From Parcubacteria group bacterium (GTDB taxonomy: Bacteria; Patescibacteriota; Minisyncoccia; Minisyncoccales; JAQTPW01), in NCBI GenBank assembly GCA_043813215.1, contig JBDRLH010000018.1, positions 1 through 41,878 on the forward strand: DNA of 41,878 nt. The letters are read 5' to 3'. The translations under genes were made by a program, and so were the position numbers. Positions within the stretch are counted from its first letter, which is position 1. The number at the start of each line of letters is the position of its first letter. The notes under the pieces were generated by a model. It did no database searches. It was not told the DNA's origin and worked only from the letters and a program-made list of their open reading frames with translations. Below, in pieces: positions 6,005-34,046 of this stretch.

Positions 6005-6250
6005 ATGCCAGAAATTAAGCCAAACGAAATTTATACAACCAAAGAAACCCAGGATTTTTTGAAAGTAAGCACGAGCACTATTAAACGTCTGTTAAAAAGC
6101 GGCATAATCAAGGCTTACAAGGTCGGAGGGACTTACCGAATTTGGGGTAGCGACATTTTGATATTAATTTCTCCGAAGATCGAGTCAAAGGTCTACAAAA
6201 TTTATGATAAACTTAGGTCAAAAACCAGAAAAACCATTGAAAAATGGTAA
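6005..6250 (+). CDS. Small excisionase/MerR-superfamily helix-turn-helix DNA-binding protein (HTH_17-like)
   Basis: IYTTKETQDFLKVSTSTIKRLLKSGIIKAYKVGGTYRIWGSDI matches the excisionase-type HTH pattern (helix-turn-helix, then K-x-G-x-x-x-R-I wing). The start could also be TTG 5990. Confidence 0.55.
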   Translation: MPEIKPNEIYTTKETQDFLKVSTSTIKRLLKSGIIKAYKVGGTYRIWGSDILILISPKIESKVYKIYDKLRSKTRKTIEKW

Positions 6251-10441: not shown

Positions 10442-10454
10442 AAAACTTATAATT

Positions 10455-11414
10455 ATGGACTCTTTATCAAAAAATTATTTAACAAACAAAAAGATTTTAG
10501 TTACCGGCGGCGCAGGCTTTTTAGGAAATTTCATTATTAAAAAACTTTCAGAGCGCGGAGTGCCAAAAGAAAATATTTTCATACCTTTATTTGAAAATTA
10601 TGATTTAAGAAAAATGGAAAACTGCCTGAAAGTTGTTGAAAATCAAGATATTGTAATTCATTTGGCCGCTAAAGTCGGAGGCATTGAATATAGCAGCAAG
10701 AATCCCGGGCAGATGTTTTATGACACTGCCATCATAGGCATCCAATTAATGGAAGCCGCCAGGCAGGCAAATGTAAAAAAGTTCGTTGCCATTGGATCAG
10801 TTTGCGCCTATCCGAAATTTACTCCGGTACCCTTTAAAGAAGAAGATCTTTGGTCGGGCTACCCCGAGGAAACCAATGCCGCCTACGGGATAGCCAAAAG
10901 AGCGCTTCTAGCTCAAGCCCAAGCTTATCGAAACCAATACGGATTTAATGCCGTTTATCTTATATTGGTAAATCTATACGGTCCGGGTGATAATTTTGAC
11001 CCTCAATCTTCCCACGTTATTCCGGCTTTGATCAAAAAAGTTTATGAGGCCAAAAGCCAAGGAAAAAATTATATCAAAGTTTGGGGTTCAGGCAAGGCAA
11101 CTAGAGAATTCCTGTATGCCGAAGACGCCGCAGAGGGCATCTTGCTGGCTACTGAAAAATATAACAAATCAGAGCCGGTTAATTTGGGCACAGGCAAAGA
11201 AATTCCCATTAAAGAATTGGCTGAATTAATTTGCAGAATAATGGATTTTGGAGGCGAGATTCGTTGGGATGCCGCAAAACCAGACGGCCAGCCCAGACGT
11301 TGTTTGGATGTTTCTAAAGCTGAAAAAGAATTCGGCTTTAAAGCTGCCATGCCATTCAAAGAAGGTCTGAAAAAAATCATTGATTGTTATGTGGAAAACC
11401 ATGAAACTAAATAA
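10455..11414 (+). CDS. GDP-4-keto-6-deoxy-mannose epimerase/reductase family (GDP-L-fucose synthase Fcl / GDP-L-colitose synthase ColC-like), copy 1
   Basis: The ORF track begins at 10371, but ATG 10455 (MDSLSK...) follows the upstream stop. [11 protein letters not shown] Rossmann motif, GSVCAYP (Cys aligned with E. coli GMER C109, nt 10803-10805), YGIAK (YxxxK), NLYGPGDNF...SSHVIPALI (His aligned with H179), and [14 protein letters not shown]. Confidence 0.8.
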
Positions 11415-12204
11415 CTCCGAATTTTTTAAATTGGAGATTATGATAACCGATTTCTGCAATTTAGATTGCCGACTATGTTCTCAGGGAATTCCCTTAATGA
11501 AAAATAAAAAAATTATATCTTTGGATGATTTAAAGAGAATGAGCAAGCTTGTGGAGCCGTTTGAATTCCACACCGTCAAGATTTGCGGGGGCGAGCCGAC
11601 ATCTCATCCTCAATTCGAAAAGATTTGCGACAATCTCAAGAGACTATTTCCTGCCGATTACTATTATTTGGCAACAAACGGTTTTTGGTTAGAGAAATTT
11701 ATCAATCAGATAAAAGTATTTAATATTATTGAATTGAGTCACTATCCTGGGAAAAATGATGAGATATTCGAGAAGTTAGCAAAACTGAAGATCCCCAATT
11801 TGGCGGCCATAAGAAAAAAAGAATATCAAGAGATAATGGATGTTTATCAAGAAAATAATTTAAACAAAACCGATATTTATAAAAGATGTCCCTATAAAGA
11901 AATACAAATTGTTCAAGACAGGATATATACTTGCTGTAATATATTTGGCCAGGCCATGCGCCAGAACATTGATCTTGATAAAATTAGCGTCCTTTTTGAT
12001 GAAAATTGGCGGCAAAACCTATCCAAAATTGACATAGAGCCTTATTGCCAGCGCTGTTTTATAGATGTGCCCGGGCCTGCCAGAGTTGCTCTATATGAGA
12101 TCGAAACAGGAATCGGGCGCTGGCTGAAAAAGAATTTTAAACCACTAAGTAAACTCATCCGCTGGTTAAAAATTCAAAAGCGGCAAATTAAAAGCAATAA
12201 TTAA
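11401..12204 (+). CDS. Small radical SAM enzyme with a C-terminal Cys-rich (twitch-like) region
   Basis: CNLDCRLC (CX3CX2C, nt 11455-11478), then GGEP, and C-terminal ...RIYTCCN... and CQRCF. These parallel the DGEVRMCC / CARCE motifs of the two larger paralogues. Start taken at ATG 11401, which overlaps the fcl-like stop; the track start 11380 is also possible. Confidence 0.65.
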
Positions 12205-15971: not shown

Positions 15972-16988
15972 ATGCCAAGAGATCAAAAAACAATCGTCAA
16001 TTCCGGGCATTATCAATTTTTAGGGACAGATAAATTTGATGACGGTGAAAAATCATTTGGTAAGGATTACCTTGCCTATCGGGAGAAGTGGAAAGAACAC
16101 CCTCAAAAAGGAATAGTGGGCGAGTTTCCTCTTCACCTTGATATCGAATCAACCAACAGCTGCAATTTAAGATGCCCAATGTGCGGCCGAAATTTTATGA
16201 AAGAAAAATTAGGCTTCATCGATTGGAATTTATTTGTAAAAATTGTTGACGAAGCGGCAAAATATCATCTTCCCTCAATAAAACTTAATTATCGCGGAGA
16301 ACCATTGCTGCATCCTAAGATTTCGGAAATGGTAAAATATGCCAAAAAGAAAGGGATTTTAGAGGTGCAATTTAACACCAACGGGCTTTTATTGAACGAA
16401 AAAAAAGCTAAAGAACTTATAGAGGCAGGTATAGATAGAATTATTTTTTCCTTTGATGCCGCCGATAAAAAAATCTATGAAAAAATCAGAAGAGGTTCTA
16501 ATTACAATATAGTTATAAAAAATATAAAGAAATTAGCCGAGATTAGGAATAAAAAAGGATTAAAAAGGCCCTTAATAAGAGTCCAGATGGTAAAAATGAG
16601 AATTAACAAAAAAGAGGTCGAATCTTTTATAAATATGTGGCTTCCGGTCGCGAATAGAGTTTCTGTAAGTACTGAAAGAAATCTTTTAGGAAGAAAAAAG
16701 AAATTAAAACACTTTTCCTGCCCTCAAATCTGGCAGAGATTGATGGTTTGTTGGGATGGCGAGGTCAGAATGTGTTGCGGAGATTGGTACGGAGAAATTA
16801 TTTTAGGAAACGCCAAGAAGAATAGCCTTTATAAAATCTGGCATGGTAAAAAATTAAATGAAATCAGAAAGCTTCATTTAGAAGGCAGATTTAATAAGAT
16901 ATCGCTTTGCGCTCGTTGCGAAGTCAATACGCCGAGATTTGATTCAGAGCTCCAGAAATTAGTGGAGAAAATTAATTCTTCAAAATAA
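15972..16988 (+). CDS. Radical SAM enzyme with SPASM/twitch-type auxiliary-cluster domain, paralogue A
   Basis: CNLRCPMC (CX3CX2C, nt 16161-16184), YRGEPLLHP, C-terminal C-x12-G-x4-C-C (CPQIWQRLMVCWDGEVRMCC) and CARCE. Roughly 70-75 percent amino-acid identity by eye to 22964-23992. Confidence 0.75.
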   Translation: MPRDQKTIVNSGHYQFLGTDKFDDGEKSFGKDYLAYREKWKEHPQKGIVGEFPLHLDIESTNSCNLRCPMCGRNFMKEKLGFIDWNLFVKIVDEAAKYHLPSIKLNYRGEPLLHPKISEMVKYAKKKGILEVQFNTNGLLLNEKKAKELIEAGIDRIIFSFDAADKKIYEKIRRGSNYNIVIKNIKKLAEIRNKKGLKRPLIRVQMVKMRINKKEVESFINMWLPVANRVSVSTERNLLGRKKKLKHFSCPQIWQRLMVCWDGEVRMCCGDWYGEIILGNAKKNSLYKIWHGKKLNEIRKLHLEGRFNKISLCARCEVNTPRFDSELQKLVEKINSSK

Positions 16989-16990
16989 TC

Positions 16991-17788
16991 ATGGTAGAAA
17001 TAAATTCAAAAAATAAAGTCGTAATTCTTATCGCCGTCAGAATGAAGTCCGCTCGCTTGCCGAAGAAAGCCGTGGTTAAAATTGAAAGTAAATCGGCAAT
17101 AGAACATTTATTGGACAGGTTAAAATTAGCTAAAATTCCCAAGGCGATTGTGATTTGCACAACTAAAAACAGAGAAGACGATATTTTGGTTAAAATCGCC
17201 AAGAAAAATGGAGTTAAATGTTTCAGAGGCAGCAAAGAAGATGTTTTAGCCAGGTTTATCGGAGCGGCCGATGAAGAAAAAGCCGAAATAGTCGTTAGGG
17301 TGACGGGTGATAATATTTTAGTAGATCCTGTTTATCTGGATAAAATGATTAAATACCACATTAAAAACAAAGCAGATTATACCAGAACCGAAGGATTGCC
17401 TTCGGGAGTAAAATGCGAAGTGATGTCGGTCGCGGCTCTTAAAAAGACACGTAAACTTGCAGAAAGGCCTGAAAATAGTGAATATATGACGTGGTACTTC
17501 ACTAAAAATCCCGAATTTTTCAAGATTGCGACAATGCCGGTTCCTGAAAAATATTCCCGGCTGCGTTACCGGCTGACGATAGACGAGCCGAACGATTATA
17601 AGCTCCTGAAAATAATTTTTAAGAAGCTTTACAAAAAAGGGGAAAAACCATTTTTATGGCCTGAAATTGTGGAATTTTTAGACAAAAATCCCAAGCTCTT
17701 GGAAATCAACGCCAAAGTCGCCCACAAAGATTTTGCTAGAATGAAAAAAGAAATCAATATTAAATTAAAGAAAAAGCAATATGCCTAA
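16991..17788 (+). CDS. SpsF/NeuA/KdsB-family cytidylyltransferase (CTP_transf_3), copy 1
   Basis: VILIAVRMKSARLPKKA N-terminal nucleotide-binding motif, ICTTKNREDD, VRVTGDNILVDP. Length 265 aa. Confidence 0.65.
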   Translation: MVEINSKNKVVILIAVRMKSARLPKKAVVKIESKSAIEHLLDRLKLAKIPKAIVICTTKNREDDILVKIAKKNGVKCFRGSKEDVLARFIGAADEEKAEIVVRVTGDNILVDPVYLDKMIKYHIKNKADYTRTEGLPSGVKCEVMSVAALKKTRKLAERPENSEYMTWYFTKNPEFFKIATMPVPEKYSRLRYRLTIDEPNDYKLLKIIFKKLYKKGEKPFLWPEIVEFLDKNPKLLEINAKVAHKDFARMKKEINIKLKKKQYA

Positions 17789-19160
17789 AATAAGCGTTTA
17801 TACGCCAACTTACAATTGTGCAAGATACTTAAAGACTGCCATCAATAGTATTCTTAAGCAGACCTATCAAGATTTTGAATTGATAATTATTGACGATGCC
17901 AGCAGTGATAATACTTGTGACATTCTCGATGATTATAAAAATAATCCGAAAATTAAAATATTCAGAAATGAAAAAAATATTGGTTTTGTGAGATCGGCGA
18001 TAAGAGCCATAGAGAAAGCCAATGGAGAATATATTATGAGATTAGACGCCGACGACTATCTCGATGAGAATGCCTTATTTGTTATGGCCAACATCTTGGA
18101 CAATCATCCGGAATTTGGAATGGTTTATCCCGATTACTTCGAAATCGACGAGAAGGGGAATATAATCGATTATTTCAGGAAAAACAAAATCGGAGAGGAA
18201 ATTAAATTAATGGATTTGCCGGCCAACGGTGCCTGCACATTAATGAGAAAATCCTGTTATAAATCTATCGGGGGATATCGTGACGATATCAGAATGCAGG
18301 ACAAATATGACATATGGATAAAATTCCTTAAAAAATTTGAGCCGTATAATGTAAATCTTCCATTGTTTTATTACAGAAGACACGGAGGTAATATTTCAAA
18401 TAATGCAAAAAAGATATTACAGACGAGAAGATATATAAAAGAAAAATTTATCGAAAAGAAATATAAAAAAACAAAGCCCAAAATTCTGGCAATAATACCC
18501 ACCAGGGCTAAATTTCCAATATACTCTGATTTTCCTATAAGAAAAATTGCCGGCAAACCTTTGATTTATTATCCAATAAGGGCGATAAAGGGGATTTCTT
18601 TGATTAAAAAAGCAATTTTTGTTACGGAAGATAAAGACTTAGCAAAAGAAGCAAAAAAGCATAATATCGAAACCATGATAAGGCCGGAAGAACTTGCCAC
18701 TTCCAGAATAGGCATTGAACCCACTATAAAATATGTTCTTAATCAAGTGAAGAAAAAAAATAAATTTATTCCGGATATCGTGGTAATTCTTTTTATAACC
18801 TCCCCCCTCATTACTTCTGAGCACGTAAAAGCGGCGATCGATACCCTGATGATTTATGATGCTGACAGTATAATTTCGGTTCAAGAAGATAAAAGATTTC
18901 ATCATAAACACGGAAGGTATGGCTTGGAGCCGATTTTTGAAAAAAGATTGCTACGCCAAGAAAAAGATTTGCTTTTTGAAGAAATTGGTTCCTTGGTAGT
19001 GACCAAAAGAAAATTTATAACAGATAAAAATTTGTTTGGGAAAAAAATTGGGCACATCGCTTTGGCCGATGAGGAGGCGATAGACATTGATAATAAATTT
19101 AAATTTTGGTTGGCCGAGCAGATTATTAAAAACAGGAATAAGATTAATAAATTAACTTAA
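17781..19160 (+). CDS. Fusion protein: N-terminal GT2 glycosyltransferase + C-terminal NeuA/KdsB-like cytidylyltransferase domain
   Basis: aa 1-230: ISVYTPTYNCARYLKTAINSILKQTYQDFELIIIDDASSDNT and RLDADD (DxD). From aa ~235: ILAIIPTRAKFPIYSDFPIRKIAGKPLIYY, VTEDK, ILFITSPLITSEHV. The domain boundary is near nt 18474. Confidence 0.65.
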   Translation: MPKISVYTPTYNCARYLKTAINSILKQTYQDFELIIIDDASSDNTCDILDDYKNNPKIKIFRNEKNIGFVRSAIRAIEKANGEYIMRLDADDYLDENALFVMANILDNHPEFGMVYPDYFEIDEKGNIIDYFRKNKIGEEIKLMDLPANGACTLMRKSCYKSIGGYRDDIRMQDKYDIWIKFLKKFEPYNVNLPLFYYRRHGGNISNNAKKILQTRRYIKEKFIEKKYKKTKPKILAIIPTRAKFPIYSDFPIRKIAGKPLIYYPIRAIKGISLIKKAIFVTEDKDLAKEAKKHNIETMIRPEELATSRIGIEPTIKYVLNQVKKKNKFIPDIVVILFITSPLITSEHVKAAIDTLMIYDADSIISVQEDKRFHHKHGRYGLEPIFEKRLLRQEKDLLFEEIGSLVVTKRKFITDKNLFGKKIGHIALADEEAIDIDNKFKFWLAEQIIKNRNKINKLT

Positions 19161-19184
19161 ATAATAATTAAATAATTTAAATAT

Positions 19185-20009
19185 ATGCAAGAAAACACAA
19201 ATCAATTCGCGTTGCGCAGGCAGTGGGGGCCAAATTTTAATATCCCTAATGTTTTAAAAACTAATTTTGAACAACCATCGGAAATGGTGGTAATTGGCGG
19301 TCCTTGCGCTATTGAGTCTCCTGAGCAAATTGATAAAATTGTTCCGGAAATTTCAAAAGAGGTGACTTATTTCAGGGGAGGAGTTTTCAGGGCCGGCACA
19401 TATCCGCCAAAAGAAATTGGCTGGAACTGGGATTTATTAAAGTATTACAATCAAAAAGCAAAAGAATTCGGGAAAACAAATGCTGTCGATGTTTTGGATT
19501 TAAGGGATATCGATAAAATTGAACCTTATCTTGGAGCTTTTCAGGTAGGGATGAGGGCGGCTCAAAATTATGTTTTACTGGATGAATTATCAAAGCAGGA
19601 AAAACCGGTATTTTTAAAAAGAGGCGCTTGGGAAAAGTTAGACGAATGGCTTGGTTCTTTAGAATATTTAGTCAAAAGAGGAAAGAAAAATATTTATCTT
19701 ATTGAAAGGGGCATTGTCGGTTTTGACAACCATACGAGATATACTTTGGCCATATCTTCCATTCCCTCAATTAAAGCTATTTGCAACGTGCCGATTATTA
19801 TTGATGCCTGTCACGGAACAGGCAGAAGGGATATAGTGCCCGCTATGACTTATGCCGGAATCGGGGCCGGCGCCGCCGGAATTTTATTGGAAACTCATTA
19901 TGATCCAGAAAATGCCATGGGAGCTGATGCAGCCCAAACGATTAATTTCCAAACTTTTCACAAGACAGTGGCAAGGGCAAAAGAAATTTATGATATTGTC
20001 AGAAAATAA
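19185..20009 (+). CDS. DAHP synthase type I-beta / KDO8P synthase-fold PEP-utilising aldolase (divergent)
   Basis: IGGPCAIES, FQVGMRAAQNY, FLKRG, IERGIVGF..TRYTL, IIDACHGTGRRDIV, LLETHYDPENAMGADAAQ. The metal-ligand pattern Cys41/His210/Glu236/Asp248 is retained. The canonical KPRT(S)P motif reads RAGTYP (aa 69-74). Confidence 0.65.
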   Translation: MQENTNQFALRRQWGPNFNIPNVLKTNFEQPSEMVVIGGPCAIESPEQIDKIVPEISKEVTYFRGGVFRAGTYPPKEIGWNWDLLKYYNQKAKEFGKTNAVDVLDLRDIDKIEPYLGAFQVGMRAAQNYVLLDELSKQEKPVFLKRGAWEKLDEWLGSLEYLVKRGKKNIYLIERGIVGFDNHTRYTLAISSIPSIKAICNVPIIIDACHGTGRRDIVPAMTYAGIGAGAAGILLETHYDPENAMGADAAQTINFQTFHKTVARAKEIYDIVRK

Positions 20010-20010
20010 T

Positions 20011-21096
20011 ATGAAGCGAGACCTAAAAATTTTAGCAGATTTAGAAGAGAGGCTTGAAAAGTTTTTGGCTTTGGCAAAAAACGAAATTCATTCAAAGCCC
20101 TGGCTGGTCGTCGTGCTGATGCACGAGTATTACAGGAATCTTTATCCCCAAGATCCTTATCTTCCGTTTGACAAAAAAATATCAAATACAAGTAGAATAA
20201 AGTCTGTCTTAGAAAAGAACATTGAAATTTTAAAAAAGACAGATTATATTAAATCCTATTTTCCTAAAATTACCAGTTTGGATAATTTTGTGTCGGAAAA
20301 GCTTGATAATTATAAAAGTAAAACAAAAGGAAAAACTCAAAAAGTTTATGATATGCTCTGGAAAAAATTCAGCACAGCAAATTATTTGGAAGAAGCAAAA
20401 AGAATAATCATTGATAGGTTCAAAAACAGTAAATTTAATTTCCCGAAACTTAAAGGCAAAACGATCTTAGATCTCGGATGCGGGAGTGGGAGATATACAA
20501 TTGCTCTTACTTTGTTGACCGGAGCTAAAAAAGTTTACGGGATTGATTTAGACAGAGAGTCGATTAAAAGATGTAAAAAGATCGTAAATAAGGCAGGAAT
20601 TTCAAATATAGAATTCAAAGTTGCGGATGTTTTAGATATTCCCTTTGAAGATAATTTTTTCGATTTTATTTTTTGCAATGGCGTCTTGCATCATACTCTT
20701 GATATGAAAAAAGGGATGAGGGAATTTTATCGAGTATTGAAACCAAAATCCCGCGCCTATTTATATTTATATGGCGATGGAGGGATTTTTTGGCAGACAA
20801 GAAAAATGGCGCCTAAAATAATGAAAAAAATTCCTCAAGAATATACAATGGCAGTTTTAGACATAATAGGATTACCTAAATCACGTTTTTTATTCACCGA
20901 TAATTGGTATGTTCCCTTAGAACGACATACCACTAGAAAATATCTGGAAAGTTATCTTAAAAAAATAGGATTTTCAGCAATAGAAAAAATTATAAGCGGT
21001 CGACCTACCGACCTTGATAGTGTTGTCGCGCTTAATCATCAGGATTCGAAAATCATATGGGGCGACGGGGAACTTCGGTATTTTGTTGAAAAATAA
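20011..21096 (+). CDS. Class I SAM-dependent methyltransferase with a ~190-aa N-terminal extension
   Basis: The track ORF starts at 19852 inside the previous gene; ATG 20011 lies 1 nt after the upstream stop. ILDLGCGSGRYTIAL (motif I), YGIDLD, FDFIFCNGVLHH, LKPKSRAYLYLYG. Confidence 0.7.
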   Translation: MKRDLKILADLEERLEKFLALAKNEIHSKPWLVVVLMHEYYRNLYPQDPYLPFDKKISNTSRIKSVLEKNIEILKKTDYIKSYFPKITSLDNFVSEKLDNYKSKTKGKTQKVYDMLWKKFSTANYLEEAKRIIIDRFKNSKFNFPKLKGKTILDLGCGSGRYTIALTLLTGAKKVYGIDLDRESIKRCKKIVNKAGISNIEFKVADVLDIPFEDNFFDFIFCNGVLHHTLDMKKGMREFYRVLKPKSRAYLYLYGDGGIFWQTRKMAPKIMKKIPQEYTMAVLDIIGLPKSRFLFTDNWYVPLERHTTRKYLESYLKKIGFSAIEKIISGRPTDLDSVVALNHQDSKIIWGDGELRYFVEK

Positions 21097-21105
21097 TAAA
21101 AAATT

Positions 21106-22959
21106 ATGTGTGGAATTTTTGGAACAATAAATAGTAAAAAAACCAAAGAAATCGGCCGGATCGCCTTTGAACTTTTGCGTCACAGAGGTCCTGACGACAG
21201 GGGCATAATTACTTTTCCCCAAGGCATGATGCTGAATACAAGGCTGTCTATTATTGATTTGAGTCCGACTGGCCACCAGCCGATGGTAAGTCGCGATGAG
21301 AATATATATCTAGTCTTTAACGGAGAAATATACAATTACCTTGAACTGAAAGATGAATTAAAAAGAGATTATATTTTTAGGACTAATACCGATACGGAGG
21401 TTATAATAGCTGCTTATCAAAAATGGGGTGAAAATTGTCTGAATAAATTTCGGGGGATGTTTGCTTTCGGGCTTTGGGATAAAAAACAAAAAAAGCTTTT
21501 TTGCGCAACAGATCGTTTTAGCATTAAACAGATATATTATTATTGCGATAAAAACACTTTTATTTTTTCTTCGGAAATAAAACCTATTTTGGCGAGTGGC
21601 GTAAAAGCCAAGCCAAACGACCAGGCTATTTATGATTTTTTATCGTTTGGATTCCAAGACCATGATGAAAATACTTTTTTCAAAAATATCTACCAACTGA
21701 GGCCCGCTCACTATCTTTTATTTAAAGACGGAAAGTTAAAAATGAAAAGATATTGGGATAAAAAAGAAGAAGAAATAGGAATTCTTAAGGAAAACAAAAA
21801 AGAAATTTTAAATAAATTAGATAAAAAATTAAGAGAAACAATCGCTTATCATTTAAGGAGCGACGTGGAGGTGGGATTAAGTTTGAGTTCAGGCTTGGAT
21901 TCAAATATGGTGAGAGCGATAGCCACTGATTTACTCGGTTCCTCCAAAAGAATTAAATGCTTTAATTTTAGTTTTGTAAATACTATTTATGACGAAAAAG
22001 AAAGATTGGTTAAACTAAATTTAAAAGATAAAAGATGCGATTTTTATTCGACTCCCATAACGCCTGACGATTTCTTTAAAAATTATTCGGAATTGATTTA
22101 TATAATAGAGGAACCGATCAGCGGATTGGGGATTTATGCTTATTGGCTGAATTGCCAGCACGTCCACGAAAGAGGAATAAAAGTATTGCTTGACGGACAA
22201 GGAGGTGATGAGGCCTTCGGGGGATATAAATATTATTATTATCACAGGTTTCTGAATCTCTGGAAGAGAAAACGCCTTAAAGAGCTACAAGAAGAAATAA
22301 AAGCTTTCAATTTAATAAACCAAGACAATATTAAATTTCCAGACGCTGATTTTGATAAATTTCTTCAAAAGAATACAATCTTCGGAGCGATGAAAGCTCC
22401 CGATGGAACATCCTTGGCAGCTGACTATTTAGCTTCTGGTTTTGCTAAAAAATTCAAGAAAAGAAACATAAAACCAGAAAAAAAATTCGAAAGCTCCCTG
22501 AGGAATGCAATCTATAACGATCTTATTTATTTCAAAATTCCAAAATTGCTACGTTTTCAAGATAAAGCCTCAATGTCATGGTCGGTGGAAACAAGAGTCC
22601 CTTTTTTAGACCATGAATTAATTGATCTTGCGTTTTCTTTGCCGGAAGAATGTCTTTTAAGAAATGGAGTAGGCAAATATGCATTCAAAAAGATTGGCGA
22701 AAGATATATCGAGCAATCTTTGATGAAAATTCCGAAACTCTATGTAGCAACTCCGCAAAGGGAATGGATAAGGCATGATCTTAAAAAAGAAATAATCAAA
22801 ATGATTGATGATTCGGTTTTGCAAAAAGAAGGGTATGTTGATGCTAAAAAACTAAAAGCAGAATACAACAATTATCTTCAGCAAAAAGACTTGGGAAATT
22901 CATTTTTTATTTGGAAATTTTTTTCACTAGAGCTTTGGTATAGAAATTTTATTAGATAA
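21106..22959 (+). CDS. Asparagine synthase (glutamine-hydrolysing) family amidotransferase, AsnB-like
   Basis: MCGIFG N-terminus (Cys2 Ntn nucleophile), RGPDD, FNGEIYNY, SLSSGLDS PP-loop. Length 617 aa. Confidence 0.8.
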   Translation: MCGIFGTINSKKTKEIGRIAFELLRHRGPDDRGIITFPQGMMLNTRLSIIDLSPTGHQPMVSRDENIYLVFNGEIYNYLELKDELKRDYIFRTNTDTEVIIAAYQKWGENCLNKFRGMFAFGLWDKKQKKLFCATDRFSIKQIYYYCDKNTFIFSSEIKPILASGVKAKPNDQAIYDFLSFGFQDHDENTFFKNIYQLRPAHYLLFKDGKLKMKRYWDKKEEEIGILKENKKEILNKLDKKLRETIAYHLRSDVEVGLSLSSGLDSNMVRAIATDLLGSSKRIKCFNFSFVNTIYDEKERLVKLNLKDKRCDFYSTPITPDDFFKNYSELIYIIEEPISGLGIYAYWLNCQHVHERGIKVLLDGQGGDEAFGGYKYYYYHRFLNLWKRKRLKELQEEIKAFNLINQDNIKFPDADFDKFLQKNTIFGAMKAPDGTSLAADYLASGFAKKFKKRNIKPEKKFESSLRNAIYNDLIYFKIPKLLRFQDKASMSWSVETRVPFLDHELIDLAFSLPEECLLRNGVGKYAFKKIGERYIEQSLMKIPKLYVATPQREWIRHDLKKEIIKMIDDSVLQKEGYVDAKKLKAEYNNYLQQKDLGNSFFIWKFFSLELWYRNFIR

Positions 22960-22963
22960 AATT

Positions 22964-23992
22964 ATGAAAAAAATAAAAAAACAAAACAATACTATTATTA
23001 ATTCTGGTTATTTCGAGTTTTTAGGAACAGATAAAATTAAGGACGGAGAGAAGTCTTTCGGTCCAGAATATTTTGCTTATCGTAAAAAATGGCGAGAATT
23101 TCCCGAAAAGAAAATTGTCGCTGATTTCCCGCTTCATTTAGATATTGAATCAACCAATGCTTGCAATTTAAAATGTCCAATGTGCGGCCGGAATTGGATG
23201 AAAGAAAAAATCGGCTACATAAACTGGAATCTTTTTACTAAAATTATTGACGAAGCCGCAAAATATCATCTTCCCTCGGTTAAGTTTAACTACCGGGGAG
23301 AGCCCTTGCTTCATCCCGATATTGCCAAGATGATCAAATACGCCAAAGATAAAGGAATCTTAGAGGTTCAATTTAATACCAATGGATTTTTACTTAGCGA
23401 GAAGAAGGCAGAGGAATTAATTGATGCCGGCTTGGATAGAATAATTTTTTCTTTTGATGGGGCAACCAAAAAAACTTACGAGAAAATTAGAAAGGGTTCT
23501 AATTATGAACGAGTAATAAACAACATTAAAAATTTAGTTAGTCTTCGTAATGAAAAAGGATTAAAACGTCCCTTGACCAGAGTTCAAATGGTAAAAATGT
23601 CAATCAATGAAAAAGAAGTGGAAGATTTTATTCGGATGTGGCTTCCTATTTGTAATCGAGTTGCCATAAATCTTGAGGTTAATCTTTTAGGAAGCGAAGA
23701 GACTAAAACTAAAATACATTTTCCTTGCACTCAAATCTGGCAGAGATTAATGATTTGTTGGGACGGAGAAGTGAGGGTGTGTTGCAAAGATTGGTATGGA
23801 AAGCACCCCATAGGTAATGTTAAAAAAACAAGTATTTATAATATCTGGCACAGTGAAAAATTAAACAAAGTAAGGAAGTTTCATTCTGAAGGAAATTTTA
23901 ATCGGATTCCGGCTTGTGCTCACTGTGAAATGAATATTCCGAGATTGGATCTTAAATTGCAGAAACTCCTTAAAAAATACAACACTAAATAG
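22964..23992 (+). CDS. Radical SAM enzyme with SPASM/twitch-type auxiliary-cluster domain, paralogue B
   Basis: CNLKCPMC (nt 23162-23185), YRGEPLLHP, CTQIWQRLMICWDGEVRVCC and CAHCE. Colinear with 15972-16988 along its whole length. Confidence 0.75.
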   Translation: MKKIKKQNNTIINSGYFEFLGTDKIKDGEKSFGPEYFAYRKKWREFPEKKIVADFPLHLDIESTNACNLKCPMCGRNWMKEKIGYINWNLFTKIIDEAAKYHLPSVKFNYRGEPLLHPDIAKMIKYAKDKGILEVQFNTNGFLLSEKKAEELIDAGLDRIIFSFDGATKKTYEKIRKGSNYERVINNIKNLVSLRNEKGLKRPLTRVQMVKMSINEKEVEDFIRMWLPICNRVAINLEVNLLGSEETKTKIHFPCTQIWQRLMICWDGEVRVCCKDWYGKHPIGNVKKTSIYNIWHSEKLNKVRKFHSEGNFNRIPACAHCEMNIPRLDLKLQKLLKKYNTK

Positions 23993-24005: not shown

Positions 24006-25679
24006 ATGTCCCACCTTCAGTCAAAAATTTTTAAAATAATAAAAAAATTAAAAAATTTCGTACACAGGCACGAGACATTGGAAAAATCCCTTCTTTTTAT
24101 TTGGGGTATTTTTTGGATCTTTCGAGCAAAATTCATTTTTAGAAAGATAAAACATAATCCAGTAAAAAGAAGTTTTAAAGCTATTATTTTAGGGGTAAGA
24201 ACAATTCCCACAACAAATTTAGTTTATTTTGATGCGATTTTTGGGCACGCTTTTGAAAAGCTAGGCTGCCAAGTCCGCATGCTCTATTGTGACGGGCTTT
24301 TAGATTCTTGTGATGCTGATACAGTTTTCCGAAGTCAAAGACCCCAATGTTTTGTTTGTAAAAAATTGGGAGGGTTGGTAAAGGATGCCTTAAATCTTGA
24401 CTGTATTTCTTACTGCCAATACATATCAGAATCGGACATTAAAGAGATAAAAGAAAAAGCAAAGAAGCTTGATGAAAAAGATTTATTAAATTACAAATAT
24501 CTTGGGGTTGACGTCGGCAGGCATGCGCGCGCTTCAGCTATCAGGCATTTTCTTTTCGGAAAATTAGATTTGAGTAATCCTGCTCATATTGATTTTTTAA
24601 GGAAGAAACTTGTTTATGCGATGATTTCTACAAAGATAGCTGAAGGTCTTGTCGCCAAAGAAAAGCCAGATGTTATTTTTATGCTCCACGGAATTTATAG
24701 CACCTGGGGAACGTTTTTACATTATTTCCGCTCTAAGGGTATCGAGACTATTATTTATACCGAAATGTTGTTACGAATCGGTTATTTTATCTTTAATCGG
24801 AATAGTGAACAACACAGATTGGTTTCAGAAAAAATTTGGTCTGATTTTAGGCGTCTTCCCCTGAGAAAGGAAGAGGAGACAATGGTCGATGATTATTTTA
24901 CAAAGCGGTTTAAAGGAGATATGGGCGATCAGAAGATTTATGAAAAACATTTTGATAATAAAATTAAAAAACAAGTTCTTTTAGAATTTTTGTCAAAAAA
25001 GAAATATACTAGGCGGTATGTAATATATCCTAATTTGGCTTGGGATGGTCTGGTGGAGGGGCCGAAATCTAAAATTTTTAACAATATTTTTTCTTGGCTT
25101 GATGCGACAATCGAGTTCTTTAAAACAAATAAAGACTACCAATTTATCATAAAGCCCCCTCCGACGGAGCGCGTTTTTGAAAGATGCAGCAAGGATATCG
25201 CCGACTATATCATTGAAAAACACGGCCCTTTACCGGAAAATATAATCGTACTTAAACCGGATGTTCCCCTAAGAACACATGATTTGGTCGACCACAATAC
25301 AATTGGCATTGTTTTTAACGGAACCTGTGGGCTAGAATTGGCAGTGACGGGTATTCCTGTTTTGGTTGTAGCAGATGTCCATTACAGAGAAGCCGGTGTG
25401 GTTTATAATATTAAAACATTGGAGGAATATTTAGGATTGCTTGAAGATCCACAAAAATTAATTTCCTTTGCTAAAAATAACATTAAATTGATTAAAAAAT
25501 ACGCTTATTTTTACCTTTTTAAGACAATGATAAAAATTCCTTTTTATAAGAAAGATAAATTTGCAGAAATTGACTGGAAGATTGTAAAAAATAATGAGAA
25601 ATTATTGGGCGACAATAGTAATATAATAAAAATTTGCAGAAGAATTATAAATAAAGAAGATGTGGCAGAGCCATTGTAA
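24006..25679 (+). CDS. Orphan 557-aa protein, possible GT-B-like / capsule-biosynthesis-type glycosyltransferase
   Basis: Long ORF in a very AT-rich stretch. N-terminal hydrophobic segment LLFIWGIFWIF. C-terminal VFNGTCGLELAVTGIPVLVV resembles the donor-binding end of GT-B enzymes. No catalytic motif was identified with confidence. Confidence 0.3.
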   Translation: MSHLQSKIFKIIKKLKNFVHRHETLEKSLLFIWGIFWIFRAKFIFRKIKHNPVKRSFKAIILGVRTIPTTNLVYFDAIFGHAFEKLGCQVRMLYCDGLLDSCDADTVFRSQRPQCFVCKKLGGLVKDALNLDCISYCQYISESDIKEIKEKAKKLDEKDLLNYKYLGVDVGRHARASAIRHFLFGKLDLSNPAHIDFLRKKLVYAMISTKIAEGLVAKEKPDVIFMLHGIYSTWGTFLHYFRSKGIETIIYTEMLLRIGYFIFNRNSEQHRLVSEKIWSDFRRLPLRKEEETMVDDYFTKRFKGDMGDQKIYEKHFDNKIKKQVLLEFLSKKKYTRRYVIYPNLAWDGLVEGPKSKIFNNIFSWLDATIEFFKTNKDYQFIIKPPPTERVFERCSKDIADYIIEKHGPLPENIIVLKPDVPLRTHDLVDHNTIGIVFNGTCGLELAVTGIPVLVVADVHYREAGVVYNIKTLEEYLGLLEDPQKLISFAKNNIKLIKKYAYFYLFKTMIKIPFYKKDKFAEIDWKIVKNNEKLLGDNSNIIKICRRIINKEDVAEPL

Positions 25680-25690: not shown

Positions 25691-26497
25691 ATGAAAGAAA
25701 TCAACTGCCCGAATTGTCAGAGCCAAAAATCTAAAATTGTCCTCGATGTTTCAAAAGAAAAAGATATATATTTGGATTGCTTGAAGATAGATTACAAAAA
25801 GATAAAAAAGCTTTATCTTGAATGTAAGGAATGCGGCTTAATATACAGAAATTCGGCTTTAAATGAGAAAGAGAAAAAATTATTATATAAACACTATAGA
25901 GATGAAAAATTTAAAAAAGAAAATAAATCAGATTATTTTTATAGAATTATTTCTTTACCCAAAAGACAGAGCGAAAACTATCAAAAATGTTTATTTTTGA
26001 AGAAATTTTTAAGAAAGAAAGGCAGTCTTCTGGATATCGGTTGCGGAGCTGGAGCATTCTTATATACTTTCAAGAATTATTATTTCGGCTGGGAAGTTTT
26101 TGGGATTGAACCGACCGAGGGGTTTGCCGATATTGCCAAAGAAAAGGGTATCAGAATTATTTATGGATATTTAAAGAAAAATACATTCAATAGGAAGTTT
26201 GATTTGATTACTTTAAATCATGTATTAGAACACATAGAAGACTTCAAGGAGATGCTGTTGTTGATCAAAAGATATTTTAAAAAAGACGGTTTATTGTATA
26301 TTGAAGTTCCTTCAGCTAGAGAAATAGGACGCGCTCCCAAATCTCACGATCAATTTATGTCTCCCCATCTTATTATTTTTTCTAAAAAGATTTTAGAAAA
26401 TATTCTGGCAAAGTTAGGTTATTCAGTAATAATCTCAGAGGATTTAAGATCAATAAGAAATTACAATACTGTCCGGATAATCGCTAAAATTTCATAA
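25691..26497 (+). CDS. Zn-ribbon + class I SAM-dependent methyltransferase
   Basis: CPNCQS...CKECG zinc ribbon, LLDIGCGAGAFL motif I, FDLITLNHVLEHIEDF. Paralogous to the C-terminal half of 38928-40487. Confidence 0.7.
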   Translation: MKEINCPNCQSQKSKIVLDVSKEKDIYLDCLKIDYKKIKKLYLECKECGLIYRNSALNEKEKKLLYKHYRDEKFKKENKSDYFYRIISLPKRQSENYQKCLFLKKFLRKKGSLLDIGCGAGAFLYTFKNYYFGWEVFGIEPTEGFADIAKEKGIRIIYGYLKKNTFNRKFDLITLNHVLEHIEDFKEMLLLIKRYFKKDGLLYIEVPSAREIGRAPKSHDQFMSPHLIIFSKKILENILAKLGYSVIISEDLRSIRNYNTVRIIAKIS

Positions 26498-26504: not shown

Positions 26505-27692
26505 ATGAAAGTAAAACTTTTTATATGTCATCATCCCGGTAGTTTATTGTTGTATAAAAATCTTATTCAAATAATAAGGAAATACGATAAAGACACCAAA
26601 ATTATATTATTTAAGGTAAATCACCCTTATTTTAGAGGGTTTAATTTCGGATATTATGGGAAATATTTTGATGAGATTAGAGAATTCCACTTTATAGATT
26701 ACCAAAAAAATTTTTTAAAGGGATTTTGGAAAATATTAATATTTCAAAAAAAATTAAAAATGGCGATTTCTAATTTATTATTAAATTTTGAAAAAATAGA
26801 CTTGTTTTTAGATGATTCAGCCTATCTGCCGATCAATATTTTTCTTTACAATTTAAGTAAACAAAAAAATATTAAGAACATTATTAAATTCAGGATGACG
26901 GATCCGGAACTTTCTTATGTTAAAACAGACAAGCTGAAAACTTTTTTATGTAATTTATATTCTTTCCCCTTCGGGCATTATAAAATTAAAGCGATCAGTA
27001 CGTTGGGCGGAAAATTTCTAAACTATATTTATGTTGATAAAATCCCAGGAATTGTTTTCAAAATAGGAAGTCCGATTCTTAGTGAAGAAAATAATCTTGA
27101 GCATAAAGGAAAAAATATTTTACCCTATCCAGTTTCGGTTGAGGGCTCTGAGGGTTCATCGGCTGCAAAAAAAGATATGATCATTGTATTGGGTAAAAAG
27201 AGTGTTTTTAACGATCTTTCTGAGTACCTTCCTGATTATAAAATATATGTTAAAAAATTGACCGTTCTTTTTGATGCCATAGGCGACAAATACTTAGATT
27301 GTGAGTTATATTATAAACCTCATCCCGTTGACAAGGGGCAAATTATGCCGGGGATTGATACTAAAAAATATAATTTATTTGATGATTCAGTTAATACTCA
27401 GATATTAATCGACAAATACCGGACAAGAATAAAAGCAATTTATGCGTTTTCTTCTAGTTCACTGATGTCGGGATCTTTTTTTGGCATATCTTCATATAGT
27501 TTTTATAGATATCTTTGCAATCAAGCAGGAACGGAGAGATTTAATAGTTATTTTAATCAAAATAATCTAAAATCCAGATTCCTTTACCACATATCAGATT
27601 TAGAAGAAATAGGGAAAATAGATAAGTTAGAACGTCCCAAAATAGATTCAGAAAAATTAGAAAAAATATATAGAAAGGTCTTAAATGTTTAA
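26505..27692 (+). CDS. Orphan 395-aa protein, candidate GT52-like nonulosonic-acid (sialyl-type) transferase
   Basis: The order of conserved blocks resembles Neisseria Lst as recalled: LFICHH... N-terminus, FLDDS (D/E-D/E-G-like), IIVLGKK, YYKPHP (HP motif, nt 27321-27326), IYAFSSSSLMSG (S-S/T motif). This rests on memory of the family only. Confidence 0.35.
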   Translation: MKVKLFICHHPGSLLLYKNLIQIIRKYDKDTKIILFKVNHPYFRGFNFGYYGKYFDEIREFHFIDYQKNFLKGFWKILIFQKKLKMAISNLLLNFEKIDLFLDDSAYLPINIFLYNLSKQKNIKNIIKFRMTDPELSYVKTDKLKTFLCNLYSFPFGHYKIKAISTLGGKFLNYIYVDKIPGIVFKIGSPILSEENNLEHKGKNILPYPVSVEGSEGSSAAKKDMIIVLGKKSVFNDLSEYLPDYKIYVKKLTVLFDAIGDKYLDCELYYKPHPVDKGQIMPGIDTKKYNLFDDSVNTQILIDKYRTRIKAIYAFSSSSLMSGSFFGISSYSFYRYLCNQAGTERFNSYFNQNNLKSRFLYHISDLEEIGKIDKLERPKIDSEKLEKIYRKVLNV

Positions 27693-27716: not shown

Positions 27717-28697
27717 ATGAATTTTGACAATAAAACAATTTTAATTACCGGGGGAGCGGGATCTTTCGGCCAAAAATTTACTGAGATTACTTTAAAAGAG
27801 CATAATCCGAGAACGGTGCGCATTTATGATAATAGGGAATTGGCAGAAGTAGAGATGGAAAGGAAATTTAATGATAAACGCCTTAGATTTTTAGTCGGCG
27901 ATGTCAGGGATAAAAATAGACTTAGCAGGGCAATGAACGGAGTTGATATTGTAGTTCATGCCGCCGCTTTGAAGCATGTTCCCATATGCGAATACAATCC
28001 CATGGAAGCAGTCAGAACTAATATTGAGGGCGCAATAAACGTTGTTGATGCTGCCATTGATAATTCAATCGAAAGAGTAATAGCAATTAGTACGGACAAA
28101 GCAGTTTATCCCATTAATTTATACGGAGCAACTAAAATGGTGGCTGAAAAAATATTTACCCATGGGAATTTTTATAGTGGCGAAAGGAAAACTATGTTTT
28201 CCTGCGCCCGTTATGGAAATGTTATTGGAAGCTCGGGAAGCGTTGTGCCATTATTTTTTGAGCAGAGGAAAAACGGAGAAATCACAATCACCGATGAAAG
28301 AATGACCAGATTCTGGATTACTTTGGGGCAAGGCGCTCATTTTGTTATCAAATGCATCGAAATGATGAAGGGGGGTGAAATATTTGTTCCCAGAATTCCC
28401 AGTATGAAGATTTTAGATTTAGCCGAAATAGTAGCCCCTGGAGCCACCAGAAAGATTTTGGGCATACGCCCCGGAGAAAAATTAGATGAAGTTTTGATTA
28501 CCGAAGAAGAGGCGAGGCACACAAAAGAGTTTGAAGATTATTTTATCATTGAACCCGAGGCTCCTTTCCAAAGGAGAATTAGCATTTCAGAGGGCGAATC
28601 ACTTCCCGATGGATTCAAATACACCAGTAGTAATAATGACAAATGGATTACTACAGAAGAAATAGAAGGTATTTTAAAAAATTTAGAAACAAAATAA
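27717..28697 (+). CDS. pseB: UDP-N-acetylglucosamine 4,6-dehydratase (inverting), PseB/FlaA1 type
   Basis: KTILITGGAGSFGQKF, VVHAAALKHVPICEYNP, ISTDKAV.P.NLYGATKMVAEK. 326-aa short-form Polysacc_synt_2 protein, directly followed by pseC. Confidence 0.8.
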   Translation: MNFDNKTILITGGAGSFGQKFTEITLKEHNPRTVRIYDNRELAEVEMERKFNDKRLRFLVGDVRDKNRLSRAMNGVDIVVHAAALKHVPICEYNPMEAVRTNIEGAINVVDAAIDNSIERVIAISTDKAVYPINLYGATKMVAEKIFTHGNFYSGERKTMFSCARYGNVIGSSGSVVPLFFEQRKNGEITITDERMTRFWITLGQGAHFVIKCIEMMKGGEIFVPRIPSMKILDLAEIVAPGATRKILGIRPGEKLDEVLITEEEARHTKEFEDYFIIEPEAPFQRRISISEGESLPDGFKYTSSNNDKWITTEEIEGILKNLETK

Positions 28698-28699
28698 AA

Positions 28700-29848
28700 A
28701 TGAAAAAATTAATTCCTTACGGCCATCAGTGGATAGACAGCCAAGACATAAAAGAGGTAGTAAAAATATTAAAAAGCGATTGGCTAACGCAAGGCAAAAC
28801 AGTCAAAGAGTTTGAAAGGGCGGTGGCCAGATACTGCGAGGCAAAGTATGCGATAGCTGTTTCTTCAGGGACGGCGGCGCTTTGGGCGGCCTATGCCGCG
28901 GCAGGGATTTCTCCCGGAGACGAAATTATTACCACTCCCTTAACTTTTGCCGCCACAGTTTACACAGCCAGGCATCTTGGCGGAAAACCGGTTTTTGCCG
29001 ATATTCAGGAAGATACTTTAAATATTGATCCCAAGGAAATTGAAAAGAAAATTACCAAAAAAACAAAAATATTGTCGCCAGTTGATTTTGCTGGCCTTCC
29101 CTGTGATTATAACCAAATACAGAAAATAGCCAAAAAGCACAAGCTTTTAATAATCGAAGACGCCGCTCAGGCTTTGGGCGCCGAATATAGAGGTAAAAAG
29201 ATAGGCAGTTTTGCCGATATGACTATTTTGAGCTTTCATCCGGTAAAAACAATCACGACCGGAGAAGGGGGCATGGTTTTAACTAATAATAAAAAGCTCT
29301 ACGAATCTCTCAAGATTTTTAGGAATCACGGAATAATAAAAAAACCCGAAAAGGGGGGATGGTACTACGAAATAGAAAATCCCGGATTTAATTTAAGGAT
29401 TACAGATTTCCAGTGCGCCCTGGGAATCAGCCAATTAAAAAAAGCGGATAAATTTATAAAAAGAAGAAGAGAAATCATCTCAAGATACAATCGCGCCTTC
29501 GGGAATATGAAAGAAATTAGAATACCTATTGAAAAAAGTTATTTAAAGTCGGCTTGGCATATTTATATTATCAGATTACAGCTCGATAAATTAAAAGCAG
29601 GCAGAAAAAAGATATTTGAATCCTTAAGAGAAGAAGGTTTGGGGGTTCAAGTTCACTATATGCCTTTGAACTTGCATCCGTTTTGCCAAAAAGGATCAGA
29701 TATGCTCTATGGGGTCGGTGATTTCCCAATTGCTGAAAAATACTATTCAGAGGCGATTACCTTGCCTCTTTTCCCGAAAATGTCAAATAAAGACATAGCA
29801 TGCGTGATTAAAACCGTAAAAAAAGTGATTAATTTCTATAAAAGATGA
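28700..29848 (+). CDS. pseC: UDP-4-amino-4,6-dideoxy-N-acetyl-beta-L-altrosamine transaminase, PseC type (DegT family)
   Basis: The track ORF starts at 28643; ATG 28700 (MKKLIPYGHQWIDSQDI...) lies 2 nt after the pseB stop. IPYGHQ.I...D, SSGTAAL, IIEDAAQALG, SFHPVKTITTGEGG with Schiff-base Lys183. Confidence 0.8.
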   Translation: MKKLIPYGHQWIDSQDIKEVVKILKSDWLTQGKTVKEFERAVARYCEAKYAIAVSSGTAALWAAYAAAGISPGDEIITTPLTFAATVYTARHLGGKPVFADIQEDTLNIDPKEIEKKITKKTKILSPVDFAGLPCDYNQIQKIAKKHKLLIIEDAAQALGAEYRGKKIGSFADMTILSFHPVKTITTGEGGMVLTNNKKLYESLKIFRNHGIIKKPEKGGWYYEIENPGFNLRITDFQCALGISQLKKADKFIKRRREIISRYNRAFGNMKEIRIPIEKSYLKSAWHIYIIRLQLDKLKAGRKKIFESLREEGLGVQVHYMPLNLHPFCQKGSDMLYGVGDFPIAEKYYSEAITLPLFPKMSNKDIACVIKTVKKVINFYKR

Positions 29849-29891
29849 AGATTTAATTATCTGGACAACAGACACGCAAACTGATAAAATT

Positions 29892-32166: not shown

Positions 32167-32217
32167 CACAAAGAGTTCTGTATTTATTCAACAGCGGACT
32201 ATAAAAATATAAATGAA

Positions 32218-33577: not shown

Positions 33578-33581
33578 TTTT

Positions 33582-34034: not shown

Positions 34035-34046
34035 AAAATAAAAAAA

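Follow-up and report, generated by a model that had tools for sequence, protein, structure and literature searches.

What do two paralogous radical S-adenosylmethionine (SAM) enzymes do in the cell-surface glycan operon of a Parcubacteria group bacterium? The question is raised by a contig of this organism (GenBank assembly GCA_043813215.1, JBDRLH010000018.1, positions 1 to 41,878 of the forward strand), of which we analysed the whole 41,878-nucleotide (nt) stretch, referred to below as the window. From about position 6348 to its end the window consists of a single long + strand glycan-biosynthesis operon of low guanine-cytosine (GC) content (0.28-0.43), within which the two genes, here termed rSAM-A and rSAM-B, lie at 15972-16988 (338 amino acids) and 22964-23992 (342 amino acids). 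The comparisons presented here, in which L-numbers denote related loci and P-numbers homologous proteins, make it very likely that the family to which both belong tailors a sugar in ulosonic acid pathways. The best explanation that we can offer for the data as a whole, and one to which we give slightly less than even credence, is that these are BtrN-like twitch enzymes that tailor 2-keto-3-deoxy sugar acid intermediates destined for the cell-surface glycans of anaerobes. The pair would most likely carry out radical tailoring of a (CMP-)ulosonic acid intermediate (CMP, cytidine monophosphate), probably by oxidising a secondary alcohol.

Cysteine ligands and fold of rSAM-A and rSAM-B

An earlier note on this DNA had described two colinear open reading frames (ORFs), about 70-75% identical by eye and sharing the strings FPLHLDIESTN[SA]CNL[RK]CPMCGRN and GILEVQFNTNG. 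Both ORFs are present on the + strand, the strings are found in each, and the measured protein identity is 70% over 322 amino acids (E 8e-180), a figure which, together with a DNA identity of 71%, makes the description of the copies as near-identical an overstatement. The profile searches that the note had proposed bear out its domain assignment, Pfam Radical_SAM (PF04055) scoring 80.6 and 81.4 bits against a gathering cut-off of 29.5, and Pfam SPASM scoring 50.8 and 52.7 bits against a cut-off of 21.5. The core motif CX3CX2C corresponds to C64-x3-C68-x2-C71 in rSAM-A, with its equivalent in rSAM-B, and is invariant in an alignment of 61 homologs that are 42-81% identical. The C-terminal pattern that the note had read as C-x12-G-x4-CC...C-x2-C is likewise present, as C250-x12-G-x4-C268C269...C313-x2-C316, and in the same alignment C250, C268, C269, C313 and C316 are invariant while C260 is not. 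Among the distant members recovered by a wider profile search, C250, C268, C313 and C316 are the only post-core cysteines to persist, C269 being conserved in the closer subfamily only. Since no cysteine follows C316, the full SPASM motif CX2CX5CX3C is absent, and because family-wide conservation extends to no more than four other cysteines, a single auxiliary [4Fe-4S] cluster is predicted. The term twitch denotes a SPASM domain in truncated form, with one auxiliary cluster; four cysteines correspond to one fully ligated auxiliary [4Fe-4S] cluster, the situation in BtrN, where this arrangement goes with a two-electron oxidation, unlike the open site of MoaA, which has three cysteines (PMC9012708). 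With a first-half SPASM domain and four conserved cysteines, rSAM-A and rSAM-B are by sequence members of the radical SAM superfamily, twitch subclass, in line with the single auxiliary cluster that the earlier note had proposed.

Many SPASM-domain enzymes are peptide maturases, and a peptide or protein maturase, either of the type acting on peptides that are ribosomally synthesised and then modified post-translationally (RiPPs) or resembling the anaerobic sulfatase-maturating enzyme (anSME), could sit in a glycan locus incidentally and act on a target encoded elsewhere. The SPASM domain typical of many such enzymes, the presence of SuiB, SkfB and anSME among the fold matches, and the fact that the best NCBIfam matches are to "maturase" models all speak for such a role. 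These model matches, however, fall far under their cut-offs and cover the core only, and of the second auxiliary-cluster cysteine set of full SPASM maturases (seven to eight cysteines including CX2CX5CX3C) we found only the CX2C. A second auxiliary cluster is therefore impossible in rSAM-A and rSAM-B, given the missing CX2CX5CX3C and only four conserved cysteines after the core. The family-conserved N-terminal segment, about 50 amino acids long and carrying the motif Y..YR..W.E.P, is judged too short for a peptide-recognition domain. There is also no room for a peptide gene in the region of the pair, where gaps between genes range from -8 to 24 nt, every ORF of at least 20 amino acids lies inside a large gene, and no precursor-peptide ORF was found between the genes, as the earlier note had stated. 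Combined with a conserved sugar-gene context, set out below as synteny with NeuB and CTP_transf_3 genes across more than ten phyla and as fusions to both, these observations uphold the view that a carbohydrate is a likelier substrate than a RiPP, and leave a role of the RiPP- or sulfatase-maturase type very improbable.

Both profile and fold comparisons single out BtrN, the analogy suggested by the earlier note. When the family profile was searched against the PDB, BtrN was the best match (E 7.6e-25) with both domains matched, followed over the core only by GDGT-MAS, BlsE, MoaA and PqqE. An AlphaFold (AF2) model built from the 61-sequence alignment (pLDDT 95, pTM 0.93) gave 144 Foldseek matches in the PDB at E<=0.001, the 50 listed being all radical SAM enzymes, and among these BtrN (4M7T) again ranked first (E 4e-15, target TM 0.78), ahead of SuiB, BlsE, MoaA, SkfB, DesII and anSME.

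The same cysteine pattern bears on a redox-neutral reading, in which the pair would be radical epimerases acting on the same (CMP-)ulosonic acid or on a hexose precursor, the radical removing a hydrogen at a stereocentre and a protein thiol returning one to the opposite face, as in NeoN and the peptide epimerases, so that a different stereoisomer of the sugar acid is formed. Nonulosonic acid families (Leg, 4eLeg, 8eLeg, Pse, Aci and Fus) differ in stereochemistry only, which suits an epimerase, and EpeE is among the fold matches. C269, which stands beside the ligand C268 and shows no variation among the 61 aligned members (identity >=42%), would be free to act as the hydrogen donor, because it aligns with a phenylalanine and not with a cysteine in BtrN. 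It is lost, however, in distant members, including the fusions to NeuB and to 2-hydroxyacid dehydrogenase described below; the match to BtrN, an oxidase, clearly surpasses that to any epimerase; and the fusion to a dehydrogenase of the nicotinamide adenine dinucleotide (NAD) type is more natural for an oxidation-reduction pair. We consider epimerisation unlikely on this balance. As a separate matter, C269 and D271 were considered as family-wide catalytic residues and rejected, both being lost in distant members.

Gene neighbourhoods and fusions across the family

The family is large and is concentrated in anaerobes. A word-indexed search retrieved 570 database homologs at E<=1e-10, and in a profile search of cluster representatives the 150 best hits all scored above 285 bits. 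Scanning of reference genomes yielded 53 loci, nearly all in metagenome-assembled genomes of groups known as anaerobes, among them Hadesarchaea, Aenigmatarchaeota, Woesearchaeota, Methanolobus, Methanoperedens, Methanoregula, Omnitrophota, Planctomycetia, Desulfobacterales, Syntrophus and Patescibacteria; Methanolobus psychrotolerans YSF-03 (L038) is a cultured carrier. The glycan context is kept across more than ten phyla. The remark in the earlier note that enzymes of this kind are rare in cell-surface glycan loci is thus correct for characterised enzymes only and fails for this family, which has glycan genes at every locus examined.

Members that are at least 50% identical recur in the order rSAM-(methyltransferase)-NeuB-cytidylyltransferase-GT2::cytidylyltransferase-NeuB. 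In the whole family, 23 of 61 loci have a gene of about 250 amino acids immediately next to that of the radical SAM enzyme; ten of these neighbours were tested, and all score above the threshold of Pfam CTP_transf_3 and are similar to PseF or KdsB. Context statistics were taken from 34 loci, free of redundancy and flanked on each side by at least 3 kb of sequence, the neighbourhood being defined as 5 kb. CTP_transf_3 genes were found in the neighbourhood at 71% of these loci (directly adjacent at 35%), genes of the NeuB or DAHP-synthase type at 50%, and one or the other at 76%. Fusions, sought among the best 150 profile hits, join the radical SAM enzyme to CTP_transf_3 (P0239, a single uninterrupted ORF in its contig), to NeuB and SAF domains (P0334), to D-2-hydroxyacid dehydrogenase (2-Hacid_dh; P0238 and P0307) and to an FkbM methyltransferase (P0218), and three proteins are tandem double radical SAM/SPASM enzymes (P0242, P0341 and P0344). 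Adjacency and fusion together show a functional coupling of the radical SAM enzyme with synthase and CMP-transferase genes.

The curated families point to the same pairing. While 56-63 NCBIfam models match rSAM-A and rSAM-B, with none near its cut-off, TIGR04321 ("spiro-SPASM") is the sole curated model to match them over nearly their full length (model positions 223-503, E ~2e-24). The scores of 86 and 83 bits stay under the cut-off of 250, and the window proteins, being unfused, are not members. The N-terminal half of the model matches the window cytidylyltransferases at 16991 (E 3e-15) and 31396, and its C-terminal half matches rSAM-A and rSAM-B, from which we conclude that TIGR04321 represents the same gene pair in fused form. 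A function is thereby suggested for a curated, uncharacterised family, for which a literature search returned no paper.

The two independent fusions to D-2-hydroxyacid dehydrogenase, together with two gene orders found at lower identity, would also fit a different kind of substrate, namely a phosphonate or small acid, as such or activated by a nucleotide, that becomes attached to the glycan later as a substituent; glycerate, a lactate-type 2-hydroxyacid or a cytidylylated phosphonate would be examples. In L063 (GCA_053536115.1, JAIYHW010000024.1, 7158-16202) a 45%-identical member lies in a phosphonate cluster in the order AsnB, twitch radical SAM enzyme, B12 radical SAM enzyme, phosphoenolpyruvate (PEP)-mutase::nucleotidyltransferase, thiamine-pyrophosphate enzyme (phosphonopyruvate decarboxylase-like), nucleotidyltransferase and aminotransferase, and in L064 the order is HAD hydrolase, glycerate kinase, HpcH aldolase and radical SAM enzyme. 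Because the context differs at about 45% identity, the substrate may differ between members, or a substituent may take the place of the sugar acid as substrate, and from these sequence comparisons specificity probably does vary within the family. For the family at large a substituent is nonetheless improbable, in view of the direct fusions to NeuB and CTP_transf_3, the dominance of CMP-ulosonate synthetase-like neighbours throughout, and the absence of phosphonate or glycerate genes from the window in a Pfam scan.

The neighbourhoods likewise bear on the type of reaction. Instead of an oxidation, the enzymes might catalyse dehydration or deoxygenation (as AprD4 and viperin do), decarboxylation (as BlsE does), or C-C bond formation or adenosylation leading to a higher-carbon or branched sugar acid, possibly in cooperation with a methyltransferase or B12 radical SAM enzyme encoded nearby. 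At 29% of the 34 loci the 5-kb neighbourhood contains a B12 radical SAM gene, several members have a methyltransferase as neighbour or fusion partner, and significant matches, by sequence or by fold, include BlsE, DesII, MoaA and viperin. These matches, however, are weaker than that to BtrN and mostly confined to the core, and the MoaA type uses a three-cysteine open-site cluster (PMC9012708) where this family keeps four cysteines. Chemistry of these kinds therefore appears unlikely.

For the preferred function, oxidation of an ulosonic acid intermediate, a scheme modelled on BtrN can be proposed. SAM would be reductively cleaved to a 5'-deoxyadenosyl radical, which would take a hydrogen atom from a carbinol carbon of the ulosonic acid, this being either free, between the synthase and CMP-transferase steps, or CMP-linked. 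A free acid lying between these two steps would explain the fusions to both synthase and CMP-transferase. The substrate radical would then be oxidised, its electron passing to the auxiliary cluster, and the resulting keto sugar acid could be elaborated by the DegT aminotransferase, SAM methyltransferase, AsnB-like amidotransferase or dehydrogenase encoded nearby. The scheme parallels 2-deoxystreptamine synthesis, in which BtrN works with the aminotransferase BtrS. In the window, rSAM-A is accompanied by a DAHP-synthase-like aldolase and two cytidylyltransferase domains, and rSAM-B by a complete pseudaminic acid set. By analogy, a two-electron oxidation of the BtrN type is a tentative assignment, somewhat short of an even chance, and it is doubtful, though conceivable, that, by a radical transformation of free or CMP-linked nonulosonic or ulosonic acids and with a recurrent partner methyltransferase or B12 radical SAM enzyme, the family makes new oxidised, branched or chain-extended sialic-acid-like sugars. 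Were this so, such sugars would coat bacteria of the candidate phyla radiation (CPR), DPANN and methanogenic archaea, and other strict anaerobes.

Several observations weigh against the interpretation that BtrN-like enzymes oxidise sugar acids in these loci. Identity to BtrN is just about 20%, so that fold and cluster ligation are the basis from which the chemistry is extrapolated, and the function of every family member is a prediction from sequence. No curated family is reached at its cut-off, the best being TIGR04317 (tungsten-cofactor oxidoreductase maturase) at 144-145 bits against 380, with only positions 6-170 of its 349, the N-terminal half, matched. D271, the aspartate after a cluster ligand, is like C269 kept only in the closer subfamily. 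At 24% of the 34 well-flanked loci neither NeuB nor CTP_transf_3 occurs within 5 kb, and the context shifts at about 45% identity to the phosphonate cluster of L063 and the glycerate kinase and HpcH aldolase of L064. Finally, adjacency and fusion leave the substrate intermediate unspecified.

Duplication and organisation of the operon

The earlier note had interpreted the two copies as the product of a recent duplication and as bracketing a six-gene module. Third codon positions are only 52% identical between them, a neighbour-joining tree places rSAM-A and rSAM-B in different subclades, and each has a closer ortholog in another organism, P0002 being the closest relative of rSAM-A (81% identical) and P0021 that of rSAM-B (79% identical when the full alignment is counted, 81% by BLAST). 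The low third-codon identity and the separate closer orthologs show that the duplication is old. The locus of the closest relative of rSAM-B, L065, has the order unk395, rSAM-B, unk557, PseB, PseC and B12 radical SAM enzyme, with every gene orthologous to one in the window at 58-83% identity (unk395 and unk557 being the two proteins of 395 and 557 amino acids described below). This gene order indicates that rSAM-B heads the pseudaminic acid module and does not close the module of rSAM-A, so that the apparent bracketing is probably coincidental. Loci with a single copy have the orders flippase-(SDR)-rSAM-cytidylyltransferase-GT2::cytidylyltransferase-DAHP-synthase-like (L062; SDR, short-chain dehydrogenase/reductase) and rSAM-cytidylyltransferase-HAD-NeuB (L061). 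From the comparison of sequences, rSAM-A probably heads a six-gene module of its own, counting itself and extending through the AsnB-like amidotransferase, and rSAM-B probably heads the next, from unk557 through PseI; between the two copies there are five genes and not six. Other old paralog pairs in the window comprise C-methyltransferases (46% identical), epimerase/reductases (57%) and cytidylyltransferases (35%), which makes module duplication a general feature of this operon. The C-methyltransferase and epimerase/reductase pairs lie in paralogous modules at 9161-11414 and 36711-38931 (both + strand), in opposite gene order. Elsewhere in the family, two radical SAM/SPASM genes of the same or a related family occur side by side or within a few kb in several loci (L060, L027, L041, L053, L056 and L057), and paired copies may work together or in sequence.

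All genes of the two modules are on the + strand. Directly downstream of rSAM-A lies the gene for an SpsF-like cytidylyltransferase (16991-17788; CTP_transf_3, Pfam E 1.8e-23), whose pairing with the radical SAM enzyme is conserved; homologs of it bear the name SpsF and occur on contigs that also encode radical SAM homologs. The next gene, at 17781-19160, encodes a GT2 glycosyltransferase fused to a PseF-like cytidylyltransferase (Pfam Glycos_transf_2 and CTP_transf_3); the C-terminal part of this fusion matches the full-length PseF model (E 5.7e-15). The same fusion is found from archaea to bacteria, in L001, L003, L005, L008-L011, L031 and L062; we know of no GT2 enzymes that use CMP-sugars. 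The DAHP-synthase-like PEP aldolase at 19185-20009 (Pfam DAHP_synth_1, E 1.2e-39) scores 231 bits with the NCBIfam 3-deoxy-7-phosphoheptulonate synthase model, under its cut-off of 335, and just 68 bits with Kdo8P synthase. Its gene has a 65%-identical ortholog at the same position in L062 and occupies the slot in which relatives of the conserved module carry NeuB, and the enzyme may make an unusual 3-deoxy sugar acid. The class I SAM methyltransferase at 20011-21096 (Pfam Methyltransf_31/11/25) has a longest ORF that begins at 19852 and overlaps the upstream gene by 158 nt; an ATG at 20011 replaces this overlap with a 1-nt gap and is therefore the likelier start. The module ends with the AsnB-like glutamine amidotransferase at 21106-22959 (NCBIfam asn_synth_AEB, 408 bits against a cut-off of 267), a gene type that in L063, too, immediately precedes that of the radical SAM enzyme.

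Downstream of rSAM-B, the 557-amino-acid protein unk557 (24006-25679) has no Pfam or NCBIfam match at the thresholds used, only a faint one to Capsule_synth (E 0.027). Its place beside rSAM-B is conserved, a 78%-identical ortholog adjoining the rSAM-B ortholog in L065, and a further ortholog in L062 is 62% identical. No similarity was detectable between this protein and the 560-680-amino-acid GT-B-like neighbours in L001, L005 and L006, and an AF2 model from its single sequence, with a pLDDT of 36, was unusable; the protein may be a transferase with a CMP-sugar donor. A methyltransferase with an N-terminal zinc ribbon follows at 25691-26497 (Pfam Methyltransf_23), homologs of which sit immediately 3' of the radical SAM gene in L001 and L006. 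The next gene, at 26505-27692, encodes unk395, a 395-amino-acid protein of the B-type module with no Pfam match and with a 58%-identical ortholog directly upstream of the rSAM-B ortholog in L065.

The pseudaminic acid module proper occupies 27717-35105 and is recognised from Pfam matches, the PseI score and the L065 gene order. It encodes PseB-like (27717-28697) and PseC-like (28700-29848, the start probably being 28700 rather than 28643) enzymes, a B12-binding radical SAM enzyme (29892-31421), a second SpsF-like cytidylyltransferase (31396-32166), a formyltransferase-like protein (32218-32895), a PIG-L deacetylase (32873-33577), a GNAT acetyltransferase (33582-34034), all by Pfam, and PseI (34047-35105; NCBIfam, 440 bits against a cut-off of 340). 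PseB-, PseC-, PseH-, PseI- and PseF-like enzymes are thus all encoded in the window. The B12-binding enzyme, a fourth radical SAM protein that the earlier note did not mention, lies inside this module directly upstream of the cytidylyltransferase gene; this position and the occurrence of such genes within 5 kb of the twitch enzyme at 29% of related loci suggest C-methylation of the same sugar.

The third radical SAM enzyme, at 11401-12204 (+ strand), had been regarded as a smaller relative of the pair with the same layout. The layout is indeed there, with CX3CX2C and C163...C178C179...C216-x2-C219, and C163, C178, (C179), C216 and C219 are conserved among 17 homologs of its own, but it does not belong to the same family. 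Identity to rSAM-A is 26% over the core only, a profile-profile comparison with the family of the pair aligns the radical SAM core alone (128 columns, core columns 8-138), no Pfam SPASM match was obtained, and among PDB matches, led by 7WZV and MoaA, BtrN does not appear. Its candidacy as a third member was rejected on these grounds. The 17 proteins of its separate small family have as their informative source names a Pacebacteria bacterium and an unclassified bacterium, and its position after an epimerase is kept in L061; it belongs with the GDP-sugar module (GDP, guanosine diphosphate). Overall, the core idea of the earlier note stands, but its reading of the pair as recent duplicates that bracket a module, and of the enzyme at 11401-12204 as a member of their family, does not.

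At the head of the operon, a small HTH_17 protein (5990-6250, + strand, 86 amino acids, TTG start) may be its regulator; genes for 81-amino-acid HTH_17 proteins are found at the same place in L060, L061, L062 and L066. Two further + strand genes precede it, one (107-3934, with a GC content of 0.47-0.49, above that of the operon) for a 1275-amino-acid secreted protein rich in alanine, threonine, serine and glycine that resembles an S-layer protein, the other (4073-5806) for a 577-amino-acid protein with a weak C-terminal match to a peptidoglycan-binding domain (E 1.6e-4, under the Pfam cut-off). In L060, a 584-amino-acid protein with a faint PG_binding_1 match is encoded upstream of the operon. 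The proteins at 107-3934 and 4073-5806 may be targets of the glycan.

Relation to known pathways and enzymes

To our knowledge, sialic-acid-like sugars (Neu, Leg, Pse and their relatives) are made, in every route described, by conventional chemistry with NAD, pyridoxal phosphate or acetyl-coenzyme A, and no radical SAM step is known in the Neu, Leg or Pse pathways. In the window and its relatives, a radical SAM gene is syntenic with the genes of these canonical pathways (PseB/C/H/G/I/F and equivalents), and radical chemistry therefore probably acts in a sialic-acid-like sugar pathway where none is known. Our literature search found nothing joining radical SAM enzymes with nonulosonic acids, nor with SPASM, polysaccharide and cytidylyltransferase in combination; a broader search returned just a Legionella lipopolysaccharide paper with an unrelated radical SAM ORF, and neither NCBIfam nor the literature search yielded a curated family or paper covering the family of rSAM-A and rSAM-B. 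An enzyme wired into these pathways by synteny and fusion would imply that anaerobes, especially CPR bacteria, DPANN archaea, Hadesarchaea and methanogens, make undescribed derivatives of sialic-acid-like sugars. The family supplies a concrete enzyme to test, would add to the few known twitch enzymes that act on carbohydrates, and has an ortholog in the cultured M. psychrotolerans YSF-03, which makes experiments feasible.

Three known systems are instructive by comparison. The full SPASM maturases (anSME, PqqE, AlbA, SuiB and MftC) have the radical SAM core and the first SPASM half in common with rSAM-A and rSAM-B, which differ in having neither CX2CX5CX3C nor a peptide gene and in scoring far under the cut-offs of the equivalog models. 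The spiro-SPASM proteins of TIGR04321 are fused, whereas the corresponding genes of the window are separate and in the opposite order. In fosfomycin biosynthesis, the CMP group serves as a handle for the radical enzyme Fom3, and the pairing of a cytidylyltransferase with a radical SAM enzyme in Fom1/Fom3 is alike; the likeness is one of pathway logic only, Fom3 being a B12-dependent methyltransferase and not a twitch enzyme. In L063, a Fom1-like PEP-mutase::nucleotidyltransferase and a B12 radical SAM enzyme are encoded together with a member of the present family.

The closest parallel is BtrN, the 2-deoxy-scyllo-inosamine (DOIA) dehydrogenase of the butirosin pathway, which likewise combines a radical SAM core with a twitch domain, has a carbohydrate-like small-molecule substrate and works with a DegT-family aminotransferase. 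C250, C268, C313 and C316 align with cysteines of its twitch segment (chain residues 168-237). At about 20% identity and in a surface-glycan, nonulosonic acid context, rSAM-A and rSAM-B are not orthologs of BtrN: their family has the Y..YR..W.E.P segment of about 50 amino acids in addition and, in the closer subfamily, the extra invariant C269, and it resides in surface-glycan operons beside CMP-sugar-acid genes rather than in an aminoglycoside cluster. That twitch enzymes act on carbohydrates was already known from BtrN; what is new is a widespread, anaerobe-associated family tied to the synthesis of sialic-acid-like sugars.

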